Made by a program: the position numbers and the translations under genes. Below, piece by piece: positions 24,456-59,906 of a stretch of DNA of 64,000 nucleotides. Under the pieces are notes generated by a model. That model searched no databases. It saw only the letters and a program-made list of their open reading frames with translations, and had not been told where the DNA came from. The stretch is from an uncultured Alphaproteobacteria bacterium (GTDB lineage: Bacteria; Pseudomonadota; Alphaproteobacteria; CAAHEQ01; UBA3637). The stretch is from assembly GCA_934234055.1 (NCBI GenBank), contig CAKQGY010000001.1, forward strand, positions 14,035-78,034, in the 5' to 3' direction. Numbering within the stretch: the first letter of the stretch is position 1; the number at the start of each line of letters is the position of its first letter.

Positions 24456-24610
24456 TGGGGCGCGCAAAGCAATGAACCTTTGCCTTGAACCAGTCCGCTT
24501 CCGCGCACGCCGTTCAAGGCTTAGGTGGAATTGTTTTTTTGCCCGCCCTGTGTCAATCCATAATCAAAGAGTCAACCGTCATTTTACCATCATATAACAC
24601 GGGCAGGGCA

Positions 24611-24716
24611 GGCCGGCACACCTGCGCCGACCCTCACACCATACCACACGGGCCGGCACACCCGCGCCGCCCCTCACACCACACACAACGGGCCGGCACA
24701 CCCGCGCCGGCCCGTT
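24611..24716 (+). repeat. Tandem repeat family 2: 40-bp unit gccggcacaccYgcgccgMccctcacaccaYaccacacgg, 2.7 units
   Basis: Direct tandem units at 24611-24650 and 24651-24690, with a partial third unit ending in the palindrome cgggccggc-N8-gccggcccg. A related copy in the opposite orientation sits at 43317-43380. Confidence 0.8.
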
Positions 24717-24737
24717 GCCAATCCCACTCGGTCCGTT

Positions 24738-37242: not shown

Positions 37243-37740
37243 TCAAATCATAGACTCAAACACAACCGTGCCAGCATTGTTGTCGTTGCAGTTTGTCTTA
37301 TGGGGTTTATCGCTATTTTCCGGCCGCACGCTCACATTCTGCCATTGATAGGCTTTCAACTGTTCACACGCGGCTTTCGGCACACTGTCCAAAGTAATCA
37401 CGAAATAATCTCCCGTCTCCGGCGTAACGGTCATTTTTCCCCACGGCGTATCGGCCTCAACGCCCTTGTCTTTTACCTGACACCCATAGGCATCACAGAC
37501 ATCATTATTGACAATGCGCAGCCCAAAATCATTAGTTGTCGGATAGGCCCGGCTCCACGAAAAGATATCCGAGATTCCCCGCGCTGTTTCTTCTACTTGC
37601 GAATAGACCTGCGACACGTTATAGGCCTGCATGCCAAAGTTCATTGCCGATATTCCCCCGACGGTCAGCACGCCGATCACGGCCAGCACCCCCAGCATTT
37701 CCACCATAGATCGTCCGGTTTCATTCGTATTCATCATCAT
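37243..37740 (-). CDS. Type IV pilin-like / pseudopilin protein (prepilin-type N-terminal cleavage/methylation domain)
   Basis: MMMNTNETG|RSMVEMLGVLAVIGVLTVGG has a short leader, a Gly and then a Glu at +5 followed by a hydrophobic helix. The N-terminal 35 aa are near-identical to the large adhesin at 44899..46539, and its downstream domain is distantly related to that protein too. Confidence 0.7.
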   Translation of the reverse strand: MMMNTNETGRSMVEMLGVLAVIGVLTVGGISAMNFGMQAYNVSQVYSQVEETARGISDIFSWSRAYPTTNDFGLRIVNNDVCDAYGCQVKDKGVEADTPWGKMTVTPETGDYFVITLDSVPKAACEQLKAYQWQNVSVRPENSDKPHKTNCNDNNAGTVVFESMI

Positions 37741-39707: not shown

Positions 39708-39817
39708 TGGGCTAATTTCCTCATACGGCTAAGTGTTTTAGTCTCCACGGAGATACATCAATCAGCGCGGGTGCGCCCATTGGTGCGCTTGGTATATAGG
39801 AGGTTTGAAAGGGTTAC

Positions 39818-42884: not shown

Positions 42885-43259
42885 ATGGATATTATTCAAG
42901 AATTAGAAAATGAACAAATGGCGAAATTGAACAAGAAAATCCCTGCGTTCAAAGCCGGCGATACCGTCAAAGTGATGTATAAGATCGTTGAGGATAAGAA
43001 CGAACGTTTGCAGGCCTATGAAGGTGTGTGCATTGCCCGTTCCAACAACGGTATGAATTCGTCCTTTACGGTGCGGAAAATCTCGTTTGGGGAAGGGGTG
43101 GAACGCGTGTTCCCGCTGTATTCTCCGAATGTGGCCTCTATTGAAGTGGTGCGTCGCGGTAAAGTGCGTCGCAGCAAACTGTATTACCTGCGCTCTCTGT
43201 TCGGGAAAGCGGCCCGTATTGCCGAAGATAAAGACGGCAAAACTGCCGACGCCGAATAA
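42885..43259 (+). CDS. rplS: 50S ribosomal protein L19
   Basis: [11 protein letters not shown]...[12 protein letters not shown]... is the typical L19 sequence. Confidence 0.9.
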
Positions 43260-43316: not shown

Positions 43317-43380
43317 AGGGTGTGGTCGGCGCGGAGTGTGGTATGGTGTGAGGGTTGGTGCGGGATGTGCCGGCCGATCC
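43317..43380 (-). repeat. Repeat family 2 copy (about 1.5 units, minus orientation)
   Basis: The reverse complement reads ccggcacatcccgcaccaaccctcacaccataccacactccgcgccgaccacaccctc, matching the units at 24611-24716. Confidence 0.7.
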
Positions 43381-43382
43381 TC

Positions 43383-43398
43383 TTTTTTTTTGGGGGGG
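43383..43398 (+). repeat. Homopolymeric tract T9G7
   Basis: tttttttttggggggg lies directly between the family-2 copy and family-1 copy E. Confidence 0.8.
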
Positions 43399-43444
43399 AA
43401 GGAGAGGAATGGCAGATTTGGGGTATATGGTTTCTTTGTTGAAT

Positions 43445-43481
43445 GGATTGCCGCGCGTCCGGAATGGACGCTCGCAATGAC
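43445..43481 (+). repeat. Repeat family 1 copy E (ggattgccgc-gcgtccggaatggacgc-tcgcaatgac), left direct repeat of the islet
   Basis: It matches copy F (46774-46810) at 33 of 37 positions, including the otherwise variable hairpin, and lies in the same orientation. Confidence 0.8.
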
Positions 43482-43582
43482 AGGGGATAGGGGATAACGG
43501 CGGAGTGGGGAAAGGTATTAAATGGAGTGGGTAAAAAAGAGAGACCTAAAAAGAAGAAGACGAAAGCGGGTGAAAAAAACTG

Positions 43583-43610
43583 TTTACAAAACGGAAAATT
43601 ATGCTATAAT
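43583..43610 (+). promoter_or_regulatory. Sigma-70 promoter TTTACA-N16-TATAAT for the small-protein pair
   Basis: Near-consensus hexamers. A GGAGG SD lies 8 nt before the ATG at 43658. Confidence 0.5.
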
Positions 43611-43657
43611 ATAACTATGGAGCCAATGGAGGCTCGATTATAACCGGAGGAAAAACG

Positions 43658-44044
43658 ATGGATTTGGTAAAACAATACTTTAAAGATGAACGCAAAGAAT
43701 TAAAAGATATGTCGCCGGAAGATAAGGCTGAATTGGCCGAAGAATTGCGCGCAACCACGACGGAAGTGAAAGCAATTGAACAGGCTGCCCCCTTTATGGC
43801 GGATAAAAATGAAAGCGACGGTTTTCGCATGGCGGTGGGGTTGGCAATGCATAACCCGAAAATCGCCAAAGCCATGAAAGCAATGAAACTGAAATTGTCA
43901 TCTAAACAAATTCCGGAACCTTTTGATGTGGAAGAAGAAGGTATCGGTCCGTGGATTCAGGCTGTCGTGAAATATGTGGAAACAGAACAAGCCTCGCGCA
44001 CTGCTGCAACCAAGAAATTGGCGGCCTCGCGGCGGGGGCGCTAG
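43658..44044 (+). CDS. Hypothetical helical protein, paralog 1 (128 aa, C-terminal ...KKLAASRRGR)
   Basis: Strong promoter and SD. Shares an FRxAVGxxxxNPKxAKxxKxxxLKLSSKxxPxP core and a C-terminal A-SRRGR motif with the next ORF. Confidence 0.55.
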   Translation: MDLVKQYFKDERKELKDMSPEDKAELAEELRATTTEVKAIEQAAPFMADKNESDGFRMAVGLAMHNPKIAKAMKAMKLKLSSKQIPEPFDVEEEGIGPWIQAVVKYVETEQASRTAATKKLAASRRGR

Positions 44045-44068
44045 GATATCCGAAAGGAGGAAAACCCG

Positions 44069-44596
44069 ATGAATTTGGACGAATTGGCCTATCCCGAGAA
44101 TATAGAAACCTATCGCACGACGGTGCCCGATAATGAAGAGCGCGTGTCGTCGGTGGACGAGATTGCTCTGGAAAAAGATATTGAAGCAGTGAAAAAAAGT
44201 GCACGGCTGCGGCAGGCGGATTTGGACGGGACAAAGTTGTCAAAGGCCGGCGCGGATAATATGCGGCAGACTTTGCCACAACTGGCGGCGCCGTATATTG
44301 AAGATCCGAAAAAGGAAACGATTCGCTTTCGAACCGCGGTCGGAATGCTGATCCGGAATAACCCGAAAATGGCGAAAATCCTGAAAGAAACGGGATTGAA
44401 ACTGTCGTCAAAGCTGGTGCCGAGCCCGTATGAAGCGAACTATGCACGATCGGAAATTGAGCATATCGGTATGTGGTGCGGCGCTGTGCGGGAGTTCTTG
44501 GAACGGCAGGAGGCTGCACGGCAGGCGAAAACACCGGCCAAAGCCGAAGAGGCTGCGCGGCTGAAACGCTTGGCACAGAGCCGGCGGGGACGCTAG
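44069..44596 (+). CDS. Hypothetical helical protein, paralog 2 (175 aa, C-terminal ...KRLAQSRRGR)
   Basis: Tandem paralog of 43658..44044 with a GGAGG SD. I recognise no family. Confidence 0.55.
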   Translation: MNLDELAYPENIETYRTTVPDNEERVSSVDEIALEKDIEAVKKSARLRQADLDGTKLSKAGADNMRQTLPQLAAPYIEDPKKETIRFRTAVGMLIRNNPKMAKILKETGLKLSSKLVPSPYEANYARSEIEHIGMWCGAVREFLERQEAARQAKTPAKAEEAARLKRLAQSRRGR

Positions 44597-44717
44597 GCCG
44601 GAGTGCCAGGGGAAGGCTGTCTGGGCTGTCGGGACGCCGAGGTATTCGGGCACTGGTGTGCGACGGTAAGGCTTGGCTGTATGGTGGCACGGGTCGGTAG
44701 GGTACCGGCGATGACAA

Positions 44718-44840
44718 GAAGCATTATCTGATTATGGATTGCCACAGGGCGGACTTTTCCAAGTCCGCCCTTCACAATGATATTGCATTCGTGTTTGATG
44801 GATTCTTCGCGGGGACAAGCCCCGCTCAGAATGACGAAAG
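44718..44840 (+). repeat. Repeat family 1 copy G, a two-module form (...attatggattgccac-hairpin-tcacaatga + tattgcattcgtgtttgatggattcttcg-cggggacaagccccg-ctcagaatgac)
   Basis: Module 2 is shared with copies F and H. It is intergenic between the paralog pair and the adhesin gene. Confidence 0.75.
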
Positions 44841-44898
44841 GTGAGACGGGCCTTTTCAGACCGTTCTGCGGTAATCCGGCAAATGCATAATTTATATA

Positions 44899-46539
44899 TT
44901 ACTTATGACATAAGAAAGGAGAGCCAATCGGACTTAAATCAATTTCTATTTCAGAGGCCACATTGTGCGCTTTCCCATCTTTCATTACAATTTGATATTT
45001 CTTTCCGGCGGTAAAAGAATAATCCTGTGGCCAGAACATATCTTTCCCAGATAGTGTGGCCGACCCTCTATTACCATAGGTATGCCAGGCCAAAGTGACA
45101 TTATTAAAAGACTCGTCCGACAAATAGATAAGATATCCCTCTTGAGTACTGGTGCAACTCTTTTTACTGGAATGAGTGCTGCCCATTGGAGACGTTGGTG
45201 TTGTTATACTGGTATAAGCTACAAAAGTTCGATTACATTTATTGCCCCATACAGAAGTATATTTAAGACCATCTTTTAAGCCGAAAAATTGACAAGGTGT
45301 TTTACAAACATTCTTAGTTGTATCACATTTAAACTTGTTATCTGCTCGTCCGGCACAATCCGTATCATTCACGCACTCCACGCAGGCTGTATTATCAGCG
45401 TTTGGTACGCCCGTCGGACAGTTGCATTCGCAGGTATCGGCATTTTGTGTCATACCGGCAGCCGCGCACGCCGGGCATTTGCAGGTATTGTTTGCGACAT
45501 CACAGACGGTCTTGGGCTCGGTGCAGGTCAAGGGCTCGTAAGTTGTATAGGCCGGACATGCTTCCGTCGCCGCGTGCTCCGTGGTCGTATAGCAGGTGTT
45601 CTGCGGCACCGACCCCGACTCCGGACAAGCACAAGTATTATCTGCCATATTGCATATTTTGCCGCCGGTGCAGTCTGTATCGGCCAGGCATTCCACACAC
45701 GCGTTGTCATCGGCGTTTGGCACCCCCGTCGGGCAAGTGCACGCACAGGTGTTCGGATTCTGCACCTTGTCCGGGTTCGTGCACCCCGTGGTGCAGACGC
45801 AGCTCAAATCGTCGTCGCACCGGTGCAGTCCGTCATTGGTGCAGTCCGCAATTGTGTTCTGGTGAGGCCCATACCTGTCAATTGAAGCCTGATCAAAATA
45901 GCACTGCCGCGTATTCGCCGTTGTGCAGCAAGTTAAATTGTTGGCGGCTGTTTTCTTACATTCTTTATTAGATAGGTATTGGCCTTCTTCAAACGCCAAA
46001 GTGTCCGTGTCCGTTACGCGGCAGCAGGTTTTGCCCCAACACGGATCATACGCCTCCGCGTCAGTGCGCTCGTTCAAGTCCCCCGCGAACACAAAGGTCA
46101 TCTTACTGTTCCCCTCGGGGCAGGGAATAGCCCGTTCATTCACAAAAATCCCCGCCGGCCAAGTCCAGTTCCGATCCAAGATATCCTGACACACCGCCTG
46201 AGGCACCTCTTTCACATCAATAGAGAACAAGTTTTTCTCGTTATTCAAGCCACCATCAAACCATTCGGTCTCATATTCCAGGATTGTGCTTGGGAACTCG
46301 GACAAGTTGATTCCCTCCATACCTTGCAGGTATTGCCCGCTACCGACGGTGGCGCGTTGTTTAACGCTTTCTATAATCTCGTTGGCGCGATACCGTGTCA
46401 TCGCAAAGTTATACCCCGCAACACCCCCGATGCTCAGCACTCCCATAATCGCCAACACCCCCAGCATCTCTACCATACTGCGACCAGATTCGGAATTGTC
46501 CTTTGCACCCCACGCCCCGGAGCGCCGGCTGAAGTTCAT
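44899..46539 (-). CDS. Large pilin-like Cys-rich adhesin candidate: prepilin-type N-terminus, tandem Cys-rich repeats and a C-terminal globular domain (546 aa from ATG 46539)
   Basis: The N-terminus ...SESG|RSMVEMLGVLAIMGVLSIGG is near-identical to the pilin-like ORF at 37243. Two Cys-rich modules are present (CxCPTGVPNADxxACVECxxDTDCxG). The tracked ORF reaches the TTG at 46653 through a C13 run encoding PPPP. An SD-preceded ATG at 46634 is currently out of frame. Confidence 0.65.
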   Translation of the reverse strand: MNFSRRSGAWGAKDNSESGRSMVEMLGVLAIMGVLSIGGVAGYNFAMTRYRANEIIESVKQRATVGSGQYLQGMEGINLSEFPSTILEYETEWFDGGLNNEKNLFSIDVKEVPQAVCQDILDRNWTWPAGIFVNERAIPCPEGNSKMTFVFAGDLNERTDAEAYDPCWGKTCCRVTDTDTLAFEEGQYLSNKECKKTAANNLTCCTTANTRQCYFDQASIDRYGPHQNTIADCTNDGLHRCDDDLSCVCTTGCTNPDKVQNPNTCACTCPTGVPNADDNACVECLADTDCTGGKICNMADNTCACPESGSVPQNTCYTTTEHAATEACPAYTTYEPLTCTEPKTVCDVANNTCKCPACAAAGMTQNADTCECNCPTGVPNADNTACVECVNDTDCAGRADNKFKCDTTKNVCKTPCQFFGLKDGLKYTSVWGNKCNRTFVAYTSITTPTSPMGSTHSSKKSCTSTQEGYLIYLSDESFNNVTLAWHTYGNRGSATLSGKDMFWPQDYSFTAGKKYQIVMKDGKAHNVASEIEIDLSPIGSPFLCHK

Positions 46540-46560
46540 ACGAAAATACTTTAATAACGC

Positions 46561-46566
46561 ATTATA
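46561..46566 (-). promoter_or_regulatory. Candidate -10 hexamer TATAAT upstream of ATG 46539
   Basis: A perfect TATAAT lies 22 nt upstream of the MNFSRR start. The -35 is poor (ATAACT-like), and the poly-C tract lies just upstream. Confidence 0.35.
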
Positions 46567-46599
46567 ACCACTTGAAAAACAAGAGTTATTCACACATAT

Positions 46600-46612
46600 G
46601 GGGGGGGGGGGG
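46600..46612 (+). repeat. Homopolymeric G13 (C13 on the coding strand) in the 5' region of the pilin-like adhesin gene
   Basis: Thirteen consecutive G. It separates an SD-preceded ATG (46634, frame +1) from the main ORF. Confidence 0.9.
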
Positions 46613-46706
46613 TATTGCCGGATAAAATATACATTTTGTGTCTCCTTTCTCAATCTGGAAAAATGTAATATATCTTTTTATAGCAGGAATTTTTGCCCCT
46701 GTCAAT

Positions 46707-46737
46707 AAAAAAAAGTCCGCATGACGCGGACAATTTT
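46707..46737 (-). terminator. Rho-independent terminator for the obg-rsfS transcript (hairpin gtccgc-atga-cgcggac with T8 on the minus strand)
   Basis: A8 precedes and aatttt follows on the plus strand, which gives a strong T8 on the minus strand. Confidence 0.65.
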
Positions 46738-46759
46738 GGCGATCCCGACAGGATTCGAA
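46737..46759 (-). other. tRNA 3'-end fragment (T-loop TTCGAAT, T-stem 3' half, acceptor 3' half, discriminator and CCA), with no 5' half
   Basis: The minus strand reads ttcgaat-cctgt-cgggatc-g-cca, which parses exactly as the 3' 23 nt of a tRNA. No complementary acceptor 5' strand lies within 100 nt, so it is not a gene. Confidence 0.55.
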
Positions 46760-46773
46760 CTTGCGTGTTTTGC

Positions 46774-46845
46774 GGATTGCCACGCGTCCAAAATGGACAC
46801 TCGCAATGACAAGCAGAATTATGTGCCTAATGGATTCTTCGGGAA
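46774..46845 (+). repeat. Repeat family 1 copy F (ggattgccac-gcgtccaaaatggacac-tcgcaatgac plus module 2 gaattatgtgcctaatggattcttcggg), right direct repeat of the islet
   Basis: Near-identical to copy E. It is followed by a Pu-rich tract that includes G6. Confidence 0.8.
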
Positions 46846-46880
46846 CACGGTGCGTGCCTCTTAGAATGAAAAAAACGGGG

Positions 46881-47315
46881 TTAGATTTTTTTGCGGGGAG
46901 GGGGGAGAGAAAGGCAGCGGCTGGGGCGCCAGAGAGATTCCAGGTCATAGCGGGTGCGAGCCTCGGCCGTCAGTAAATGCACGATAATGTTCCCCAGATC
47001 CACAATCACCCAGCTGCCGTCTCCGTCGCCGGCATTCGTCAGCGGAATAATATCGTGCGTGCGTAGGGTTTGCTCCAAATGGTAGCCCAGCGCCATTGTG
47101 TGGCGTGGGGAAGTGCCCGTTGCGATCACCACATAATCGGCCAGCGCGGACAGGCGGCGAATATCACGGGCTTGAATCTGCTCGGCCTTGCCGGTGTCCA
47201 GCTTTTTAATAATTAGGGTCAGGGTTTTGAGCGCGGCACGCTCGGCCGGGGTCGGTGTTGTCGGACGTTGCGGTCGGCGGGGGGAAGTGCGGGGTTTTCG
47301 GGGAGTAATGGGCAT
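46881..47315 (-). CDS. rsfS: Ribosome silencing factor RsfS (Iojap-like) with a Pro/Arg-rich N-terminal extension
   Basis: C-terminal core DYVVIATGTSPRHTMALGYHL...WVIVDLGNIIVHLL. The first roughly 35 aa (PITPRKPRTSPRRPQRPTTPTP) form a low-complexity extension. Confidence 0.75.
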   Translation of the reverse strand: MPITPRKPRTSPRRPQRPTTPTPAERAALKTLTLIIKKLDTGKAEQIQARDIRRLSALADYVVIATGTSPRHTMALGYHLEQTLRTHDIIPLTNAGDGDGSWVIVDLGNIIVHLLTAEARTRYDLESLWRPSRCLSLPPPRKKI

Positions 47316-48738
<1,423 letters not shown>

Positions 48739-48739
<1 letters not shown>

Positions 48740-50190
48740 TATTGCACGGCTTTCCCGTTGAGAGTCAGTTTGCCATCTTGAAACTGAATTTTGAGCGTGT
48801 CAACCGTCGCACCGTCCGGATCCGTCGTGCGCGCGCCCGCCGTGAGGTAAGGCCGAATGATGTCCAGCATACCGCCCTGAGGCGCACAGGCCATTTCAAT
48901 CATCATTTGAGAGGCTTGCTTATCCTGCTCGTCTGTGGGGTTTGTGAAGTCCTTTTTCGCCTGAGCACAACGGGCTTCATCAACCGTCGGAACCGGCGAA
49001 ATGGTGTCCAAATTGCGAATGGTCAGCGTCGCATCAACCACCGGTTGCGGATTACCGCGCACGTCAAACTTGGCCCGCGCCGTGCCCGTCAGCATCAGAC
49101 CTGCGCCGGCGTTTTGAACCTGCAACTCGTGCAAGGTAATCGTGCCGGATTGCAGCATATGCTGAATGGCGGCGTGTTGCCGGGCATCGTCGGACTTGTC
49201 ATCGGTGAGGGTGAGCAGATCCTGTTTATTGAGCCCCGTAATGTCCAAACGCAGCATAATCTCGGTCGGCATCAGGTTGGCCGGCACCGGCATCGCGGTT
49301 TGCAATTGGGTGAGTTTGGTCTCAAAATGATAGGTGTCATCTTGGAAGCGAGTTTTGCCCGACAGCGCGCCCGTCGCCATGGGCAGCGAGCTGTTCGTGC
49401 CGGCGGTGGGGAAAATCTGAATCGTCGGAATTTCAAAGGTGCCCTCAAATTTATCGGCCAGCAATTGACGCGTTAAATCCACGCCGACAACCGGTGCGTT
49501 CGTCAGCAGCGAATACGCCGTCAGCACCGGGATTTTAAGGCTGCCGTTTTGGGTGGTCAGGGTCATATCACGCATATCCAGCGCCGCTGACATATCCATT
49601 TTGTCCGCCGCCAAAGGGCGCGCCAAAATGTCCGAAGTCAATTGCGTCAGTGCCAAGGTGCCGTCGGCGGTGCTCATTTTCGCATCGGTGGCACGCGTGG
49701 CGCGGTTGGCAATCAATTGATAGGCCGGAACAACGATTAAATCGTCCTGAACCGTGGCGGCCGTCAATTTGATGTCGTCGTCAACCAGAGCCAGTAAGTC
49801 TTGAAGATAATCCAGAGAGGCCAGAGACAGCTTATACTGTGCCTGATCCCCGAAAGCACCGGCACGGGTCAGTTTGACCGAACGGGCAGAGAGCGACTTG
49901 ACTTTGCCGTCGTCCTCGTCCGATACGGCGCCCAACGTAATATCAAAATCATCACCGTTTGGGGTGACGGTAATTTCGCCGGGCCAGGCAATCACGGATT
50001 CAAGGGTTTGTTTGACCTGCTCGATTGTGGGGATAACCACTGCGGAAGCGGTCGTTGCCGGCGCGGGAGCGGGGGCCGTGGGGGCTGTGGCAACAGCAGG
50101 GGCCGGGGTCGGAGCCTCGGCCGCCAGCAGAGGAAATGACGCACAGGTTAAACCCGCCGCAATACAGCCCAGTAAAAGTGTTTTTTTCAT
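48739..50190 (-). CDS. Secreted hypothetical protein with an Ala/Pro-rich linker (possibly DUF2125-like)
   Basis: ATG 50190 (MKKTLLLGCIAAGLTCASFPLLAA signal) with an AAAGGAGA SD. It has a PAPAVATAPTAPAPAPATTA linker. The family assignment is uncertain. Confidence 0.45.
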
Positions 50191-50297
50191 CGTAAGTGTC
50201 TCCTTTCTGTTAAAAATAATGCCTATTATAAAGCGGGTTTGGGGGTAAATCAAGGATTTTCTTGCAATTTTGTAAAAAATATGCTATAACGAAAGCC

Positions 50298-59812: not shown

Positions 59813-59906
59813 TCGCTCCCAATTCAACCTAAGCCTGGAACGGCGTGTGCAGGGGGGGGGCGAAAAAATGGGAGTGAAAAAAGTCAAAAAAGGATGAAGA
59901 AAATGC

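Follow-up and report, generated by a model that had tools for sequence, protein, structure and literature searches.

The interval between rplS and rsfS in an uncultured gut alphaproteobacterium, contained in a 64,000-nt stretch of DNA (hereafter the window, whose positions are used throughout), holds two small genes in tandem and, convergent with them, a gene for a 546-aa cysteine-rich protein with a type IV pilin-like N-terminus. Interspersed among these are short palindromes resembling repetitive extragenic palindromic (REP) sequences, homopolymer tracts and the 3′ end of a tRNA gene. A first-pass annotation of the sequence had read the segment 43445–46810 as a single mobile, phase-variable module, brought in by an integrase acting at the 3′ end of a tRNA gene and bracketed by two near-identical direct repeats, here called copies E and F. 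The comparison with related contigs favours a different reading, in which the interval is a variable chromosomal locus and its parts have separate histories. Its features are as follows (SD, Shine–Dalgarno sequence).

42885–43259 (+): rplS and its terminator, the left end of the interval
43336–43375 (+): single inverted copy of a 40-nt repeat unit, just 3′ of the rplS terminator; the array of this unit is at 24611–24730
43383–43398: T9G7 double homopolymer, 3′ of rplS
43445–43481 (+): REP-like palindrome, copy E (GGATTGCC, hairpin, CTCGCAATGAC)
43583–43610 (+): sigma-70-like promoter of the small-protein operon (TTTACA, 16 nt, TATAAT, TG; 11/12)
43658–44044 (+): 128-aa orphan protein, helical, with an SRRGR end; resident gene of the rplS–rsfS interval
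44069–44596 (+): 175-aa tandem paralog with its own SD; a separate promoter was not found
44736–44780 and 44800–44834 (+): two REP-like palindromes between the convergent 175-aa and pilin-like genes
44899–46539 (−): type IV pilin-like Cys-rich protein of 546 aa (pilin A), counted from an internal ATG
46590–46634 (−): leader start, with AAGGAG (46642–46647) ahead of ATG 46634, whose frame runs on through the C tract
46600–46612 (−): poly-C tract as read on the coding strand (plus strand, G13), within the leader-coding sequence
46677–46714 (−): 5′ boundary of the cassette, with T8 (46707–46714), TTGACA (46700–46705), a 17-nt spacer and TATAAA (46677–46682)
46715–46731 (−): intrinsic terminator hairpin, a copy of the one at the tRNA-Arg(TCT) locus; the T run of the cassette is its T tail
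46737–46765 (−): last 29 nt of tRNA-Arg(TCT), comprising part of the T stem, the T loop, the 3′ acceptor strand and CCA, with one mismatch to the intact gene
46774–46869 (+): REP-like cluster downstream of rsfS, with copy F (46774–46810) and a copy of a second type (46832–46869)
47315–46881 (−): rsfS, the right end of the interval; obg is next

The pilin-like protein, its family and its 5′ cassette

The 546-aa protein comprises a pilin-like domain (residues 20–155), two repeated Cys-rich modules (about 165–415; 42 Cys in the protein as a whole) and a C-terminal domain (416–546). As the first-pass annotation had recognized for both the N-terminus and the Cys-rich modules, the assignment is sound: a prepilin-type motif, G/RSMVE, belongs to a class III signal (ESG/RSMVEMLGVLAIMGVLSIGG) with Gly at −1, Glu at +5 and then a hydrophobic stretch of about 20 residues, and AlphaFold2 models a 50-residue helix (22–71) with a four-stranded sheet, at predicted local distance difference test (pLDDT) values of 85–94 over residues 20–155. 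The best fold matches in the PDB are TcpA and the type IVb pilins of enterotoxigenic Escherichia coli (ETEC), with probabilities of 0.9–1.0 and E = 0.02–0.06. The Pfam N_methyl match is weak (E = 0.15), sequence matches to solved pilins are not significant (E = 0.36–0.56) and a separate PDB sequence search returned none. Like Vibrio cholerae TcpA and ETEC CofA, the protein combines a long leader and the same residues at −1 and +5 with a helix some 50 residues long and, after it, a beta-sheet; unlike them, it carries Arg at +1 and about 390 extra residues (the Cys-rich modules and the C-terminal domain), and has no pilus operon nearby. The beta-rich fold that had been proposed for the C-terminal 130 residues was not confirmed, as these have no PDB sequence match and were modelled at pLDDT <40. 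A homolog search with the C-terminal domain was empty and, having missed even close orthologs, is uninformative; by eye, the C-terminal sequence motif of many paralogs resembles C-type lectin domains.

A protein search with the 546-aa protein returned 378 relatives, none of them named and several to a contig, and when species-representative genomes were scanned with the N-terminal domain, at least 561 loci matched. Of the 80 that were listed, 77 carry the label Alphaproteobacteria; human, ruminant and rabbit gut samples are the source of most, and many genomes account for more than one. Since the best match in these genomes is only 46% identical, the window's species is not among the representatives. 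The protein thus belongs to a very large family of type IV pilin-like Cys-rich proteins that is nearly confined to metagenome-assembled genomes (MAGs) of gut Alphaproteobacteria, and whose members are probably surface-exposed and may serve as adhesins; a literature search on the lineage found nothing on the family. A further pilin-like gene, encoding 165 aa with the same GRSMVEML motif, lies beside the CCA-adding enzyme gene (37243–37740, minus strand) and is kept in every strain and in the sister lineage; pilus machinery was not found in the window. This shorter pilin-like protein could itself be the major subunit, the long Cys-rich paralogs then being accessory ones.

The 546-aa gene would be expressed from a cassette consisting of a T-run, TTGACA, 17 nt, TATAAA, an SD, an ATG, a poly-C tract and a leader peptide. 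The first-pass annotation had credited the genes of the segment with strong promoters and SDs of their own, which stands for the promoter of the 128-aa gene; for the pilin-like gene, the only strong SD of the A-type cassette precedes ATG 46634, and ATG 46539, from which the protein is measured, lacks a good one. The G13 tract noted in the 5′ region is indeed present, its C strand beginning 22 nt after ATG 46634. With C13, the frame from this ATG stops after 14 codons (MYILSGNTPPPPYV, stop); C14 or C11 would carry it into the pilin-like ORF (open reading frame).

Tract lengths in related copies are 13, 13, 13, 15, 10 and 12. Five of seven copies are one slip out of frame, namely those of the window, L016 and L112 (all C13), L021 (C15) and L017 (C10), while L114/P0009 (C12) and L051 (C13, from another species and without an alternative start) are in frame from the SD-ATG. 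Because the peptide after the tract (PPPP-I/V-CVNN...), which is conserved across species and paralogs, recurs in the called proteins P0009, P0012 and P0017, the post-tract stretch is coding. The tract is a homopolymer of at least 8 nt in 5′ coding sequence, it varies in length, and both ON and OFF states exist; contigs break at it, and C13 and C15 occur in contigs of one sample, which hints at heterogeneity within a population. This is the architecture of a translational phase switch, in which the window copy (C13) appears to be off by one base, and slipped-strand changes in the poly-C tract behind the sole strong SD-ATG would turn translation on and off. A scan of the Joint Genome Institute (JGI) metagenome collection for more tract variants gave no match. 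Two other kinds of switch were considered and rejected: the RNA of the 5′ region is no more stable than shuffled sequences (z = +1.3), which speaks against a structure-based switch, and no inverted repeats flank the promoter region, as would an invertible promoter.

The upstream end of the cassette is sharply defined. Homology between paralogs and strains starts with T7–8 and ATTGACA at four unrelated chromosomal sites: next to tRNA-Arg, at the rsfS tRNA fragment, after dinB (L115) and at a cupin gene. The coordinates of this boundary are 5925–6001 in L115, 3805–3830 in L112, 13915–13935 in L016 and 46700–46714 in the window. It suggests that the pilin-like genes are discrete exchangeable units with a defined upstream end. 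Paralogs that are otherwise divergent have the cassette in common, and recombination between cassettes would move, replace or delete them.

Strain variation and the origin of the bracketing features

Related contigs encoding an identical rplS, SufE or 128-aa protein were compared and form two groups, one of strains of the window's own species (94–100% identical) and one representing a sister lineage (L011, L013–15, L018 and L022) with 96% nucleotide identity around rplS and 87% in obg. In the sister lineage, the coding gap between rplS and rsfS measures about 570 bp and is filled by a terminator, a promoter and a 129-aa gene that ends at the rsfS stop; no REP, tRNA fragment, 175-aa gene or pilin-like gene lies in it. 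The first-pass annotation would have 43445–46810 present or absent as a unit, whereas the actual indel between the lineages spans about 44045–46880, its ends do not coincide with E and F, and the 128-aa ortholog is kept.

All same-species strains retain the order rplS, 128-aa gene, 175-aa gene, and it is what follows that varies. In L016 (GCA_977942485.1) and L019, an ortholog of the 546-aa gene comes next, followed by cupin, RmuC and ThyX genes; in L017, the 546-aa gene leads to a third flank, AspRS, with a break exactly at the C tract; and in L012 the pilin-like gene has been deleted, from the REP at 44745 to the gene's first codons. In all same-species strains the rsfS flank, which takes in the two REPs, the tRNA fragment and the terminator, is conserved at 97% up to TTGACA. 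In L023, from the same genome as L016, and L024, from the same assembly as L019, it leads into another paralog (about 68% nucleotide identity) with a different promoter spacer and leader, and in L115 a B-type cassette follows dinB with the same T-run and TTGACA boundary. Strains thus swap paralogs at this shared boundary, delete the gene and vary the C tract.

The tRNA fragment has a traceable origin. A tRNA 3′ remnant beside F was correctly spotted at first pass; it is on the minus strand and measures 29 nt rather than 23. ARAGORN found no tRNA in the 64-kb window, and a permissive Rfam scan of 46600–46900 gave weak, chance-level matches and no tRNA, so that the fragment was missed by both programs and was recognized through the intact gene in L112, a contig of GCA_977942485.1 other than L016. 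There, PGI and methyltransferase genes are followed by an intact tRNA-Arg(TCT), confirmed by ARAGORN, and 3′ of it by the same terminator, T-run, TTGACA, 17 nt, TATAAA, AAGGAG-ATG, C13 and a leader beginning MNFSRRSGA. The cassette in L112 precedes a 675-aa paralog with 39% protein identity to the 546-aa protein.

Window positions 46765–46400 are 91.8% identical to L112 over 366 nt, beyond which DNA similarity vanishes; the copied stretch consists of the 29 nt of the tRNA end and 337 nt of downstream sequence. The hairpin at 46715–46731, taken at first pass for the terminator of rsfS, is likewise a copy of the tRNA-Arg terminator, present in the same arrangement after the intact tRNA. Because the shared sequence extends 337 nt past the tRNA end, the fragment is not a core duplication made by an integrase, as had been supposed; it is a passenger in a segmental copy of a paralog's 5′ region and not an attachment (att) core. 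The rsfS-side copy was made from the paralog downstream of tRNA-Arg(TCT), bringing with it the last 29 nt of the tRNA and the terminator. No integrase lies near the intact tRNA, whose neighbours are PGI, methyltransferase and cmk genes. For annotation, the case carries a caution, as a tRNA fragment with nearby direct repeats can imitate an integration scar.

Copies E and F are, as first described, near-identical and in direct orientation (34/38 identical, with zero matches expected by chance). Both are members of a family built on the frame GGATTGCC, hairpin, CTCGCAATGA, of which at least eight copies occur in the window, on both strands, and further ones in related loci. Consensus ends of the form GGATTGCC...GCAATGAC and an accumulation at gene 3′ ends characterize the family, which shares with REP-like elements a short imperfect palindrome, conserved ends, many copies, both orientations, a mostly extragenic location and a presence that differs between close strains. 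The hairpin core held to be unique to E and F was found at a third site, inside the leader-coding region of another paralog (L114). At the E site, the window and L012 have the 37-nt copy, L016 a 140-nt composite, and L017 and L011 nothing; the F cluster is kept beside rsfS in all same-species contigs, whichever paralog comes next, with an extra partial REP copy adjoining F in L023.

Even on separate contigs, E stays with rplS, and F, the tRNA fragment and the terminator with rsfS. As each flank keeps its own REP when the two are separated, E and F belong to separate flanks and are not necessarily neighbours. Instead of duplicated ends of one insertion, they are two members of a REP-like family, gained and lost independently. 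The spacers around the palindromes at 44736–44834 resemble those of the cluster at 46774–46869. The family resembles REP sequences and bacterial interspersed mosaic elements (BIMEs) of enterobacteria and pseudomonads, which are imperfect palindromes of 30–45 nt with conserved ends, clustered 3′ of genes in both orientations and variable between strains, and it differs from them in its consensus and in having copies inside leader-coding sequence. REP-like palindromes of the latter kind were seen in L019 (13725–13765) and L114 (152–185), where they encode VDCHKIQSVSRKD and NCHASGMDACND, and many family proteins in the databases have long N-terminal extensions resembling translated REPs.

The two small genes have a history of their own. 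That they are tandem paralogs, as first proposed, is borne out by 45% identity between their products. The sister-lineage contigs all carry, between rplS and rsfS, the 129-aa ortholog of the 128-aa protein (58% identity), and the window's promoter and gene (43574–44044) match 10473–10947 of L011 with 67% DNA identity, promoter region included. Because this lineage has an orthologous promoter and gene in the same place, the 128-aa gene is a resident of the rplS–rsfS interval and not cargo. The 175-aa gene accompanies it in all same-species strains and is absent from the sister lineage. Since L012 has the pair without the pilin-like gene, and the sister lineage has a single small gene alone, the pair does not form one module with the pilin-like gene.

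Pfam, NCBIfam and PHROG gave no match for the small proteins, a word-based search returned only the query itself, and a scan of species-representative genomes found nothing. An exhaustive profile search with the 128-aa protein gave 4 matches among 1.84 billion representatives, one of them a 138-aa relative on a 1.6-kb contig with uninformative context. Both proteins are helical and hydrophilic, without a membrane segment and with a strong promoter and SD upstream; the AlphaFold2 model is all-helical and of low confidence (pLDDT 60). From the position between rplS and rsfS and the basic tail, one might speculate on a nucleic-acid- or ribosome-related role.

Several further features of the region deserve mention. 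The 40-nt unit (GGCCGGCACACC...CCACACG) forms three tandem copies at 24611–24730, and its inverted copy at 43336–43375 is present in same-species strains and absent from L011 of the sister lineage. The neighbouring double homopolymer (43383–43398) is a second hypervariable tract, within the intergenic region downstream of rplS, reading T9G7 in the window, T6G6 in L016, T7G3 in L012 and T6G1 in L017. A 31-nt repeat at 59820–59860 is 90% complementary to 24503–24533, recurs within the 140-nt composite that L016 has at its E site and is followed by a G9 run just 5′ of adhE (59921). An Rfam scan placed no family at gathering score in or near the rplS–rsfS region; the sole family over threshold in the window is the ffh small RNA motif RF01793 (39.7 bits; 39743–39793), immediately 5′ of ffh. 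Downstream of sufE, all related contigs keep a gene (48739–50253, minus strand) for a 504-aa protein that has a signal-like N-terminus and lacks a Pfam match.

Weighing the readings of the locus

We consider the rplS–rsfS interval, with a probability of about 0.72, to be a variable, recombination-prone chromosomal locus of this gut alphaproteobacterium and not an integrated element, in which a homopolymer-switched pilin-like gene, a resident orphan pair and REP-like elements occur independently of one another. From the mobile, phase-variable module first proposed, this reading keeps the slippage-prone homopolymer and the strain-variable segment; the single mobile insertion and the linkage of the small genes to it fall away.

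A number of observations weigh against it. No independent contig spans 46549–46598, and the join of rsfS to this particular paralog rests on the window's assembly. TATAAA lacks the conserved final T of a −10 element, and a promoter scan did not call the site. Four of the five OFF copies are in the same frame state (three with C13, and L021, whose C15 and TG amount to a net +3 nt), and C13 could be a stable state, translation starting at ATG 46539 or by another route; in addition, the tract lengths come from assemblies and not from reads, and homopolymer lengths there can be sequencing errors. The window encodes neither pilus or type II secretion machinery nor a prepilin peptidase, so that processing and surface display are assumed. 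The indel at about 44045–46880 could be either a gain in the window's lineage or a loss in the sister lineage.

That 43445–46810 is instead one islet, owed to integrase-mediated insertion at the 3′ end of a tRNA gene, with E and F as its duplicated ends and the three ORFs as its cargo, would account for the two direct copies, for the genuine tRNA fragment adjoining F and for a sister lineage without most of the segment. It is nevertheless barely credible, since the 128-aa gene and its promoter lie inside the bracket and yet are orthologous in the sister lineage, the duplication runs far beyond the tRNA end and has its intact tRNA at a different locus, and E and F each follow their own flank, the E site being polymorphic and the core recurring at a third site. 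Integrative islands that target tRNA genes do share with this locus a partial tRNA 3′ end beside strain-variable DNA; here, however, there is no integrase in the window, and the boundaries are not those of such an island. Pfam, NCBIfam and PHROG give no recombinase match for the three ORFs, and the neighbours are rplS, rsfS and obg; no intact tRNA at one end faces a repeat of the 3′ core alone at the other, and no empty-site allele has boundaries at the proposed ends. Because phage and plasmid searches of the locus gave no match and its GC content and composition are ordinary, there is no sign of foreign origin. A milder version would make the tRNA fragment an old att scar, left by an island at tRNA-Arg(TCT) that had brought in pilin-like genes and moved to rsfS in a later rearrangement of paralogs. 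tRNA-Arg genes are common integration targets, the fragment starts within the T arm, a common crossover region, and the locus is demonstrably rearranged between strains; even so, we hold this to be very unlikely, as an att duplication would not give the same 337 nt after both the intact tRNA and the fragment, and no integrase accompanies the intact gene in L112.

Two alternatives concern the tract and the join rather than the bracket. If the poly-C tract were not a phase switch, MYILSGNTPPPPYV (followed by its stop codon) could be a regulatory leader peptide, acting for instance by polyproline stalling, with the pilin-like protein always made from ATG 46539. The shared C13 of three copies leaves room for such a regulatory short ORF, the window, L016, L112 and L021 sharing its frame despite the net +3 nt in L021, and P0009 has a conserved Met where ATG 46539 lies. 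Yet this ATG has no good SD, the SD-ATG of L051 and L114 reads through the tract into the pilin-like protein (with no other start in L051), the post-tract peptide is conserved in the pilin frame, and the 5′ region lacks unusual RNA structure, which together make a constitutive start unlikely. Alternatively, two contigs might have been joined through the repeated cassette, so that the pilin-like gene and rsfS are not truly adjacent. The short-read contigs of the window's own sample do stop at 46598 and 46549, and the cassette, over 300 nt long, is repeated in multiple copies. Such an artefact is nonetheless quite improbable: the same-sample rsfS contig crosses the tRNA fragment, the terminator, the A-type promoter-like site and the SD-ATG through the tract with only 3 differences from the window, contigs L002/L020 and L021 of that sample, each aligned individually to the window, overlap by 50 nt, and the window's gene order agrees with synteny in the sister lineage, where rplS and rsfS are adjacent. 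Nearly all short-read contigs of the species break off either at the C tract or no more than a few hundred bases beyond rsfS (the ends of L002/L020 and L021/L027). The cassette repeat and the tract are systematic breakpoints, which explains the short-read assembly breaks in this lineage.

A probable contingency locus in gut Alphaproteobacteria

On the reading preferred here, that of a variable chromosomal locus, the interval is a contingency locus of a kind already known, found here in a new lineage. In the contingency genes of Neisseria (pilC with poly-G, opa with CTCTT), a slippage tract likewise lies in the signal- or leader-coding part of a gene for a surface or pilus-associated protein, some family members are in frame and others out of it, and a genome carries several paralogs. 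The present system differs in its poly-C tract of 10–15 nt, in belonging to an alphaproteobacterial lineage known only from metagenomes and in that switching is deduced from assemblies; PilC, moreover, is pilus-associated and not a pilin, whereas here the protein itself has the pilin-like N-terminus. Families of dozens to hundreds of paralogs with a conserved prepilin-type N-terminus and variable C-terminal parts are formed by the pseudopilin-like genes of Elusimicrobium minutum and by DUF1559 of Planctomycetes, from which this family is set apart by its lineage and its C-terminal modules of Cys-rich repeats. To our knowledge, a shared 5′ expression cassette with a homopolymer switch has not been described for either.

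More broadly, and with somewhat less than even confidence, we propose that gut-associated uncultured Alphaproteobacteria may possess a genome-wide surface-variation system: each genome would encode dozens of type IV pilin-like, Cys-rich and possibly lectin-like proteins behind exchangeable 5′ cassettes whose boundary, a T-run and TTGACA, is fixed, a subset would have a poly-C switch in the leader-coding sequence, and paralogs would be moved between chromosomal sites and switched on and off. If true, this would be a pilin-based system of antigenic or adhesive variation, undescribed so far for the lineage. The homopolymer switch, the exchange of paralogs and their strain-specific presence are features associated with host or phage interaction. 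These gut Alphaproteobacteria, known only from MAGs, appear to be heavily invested in a variable pilin-like surface family, and the locus offers a testable handle on the surface variation of these organisms.

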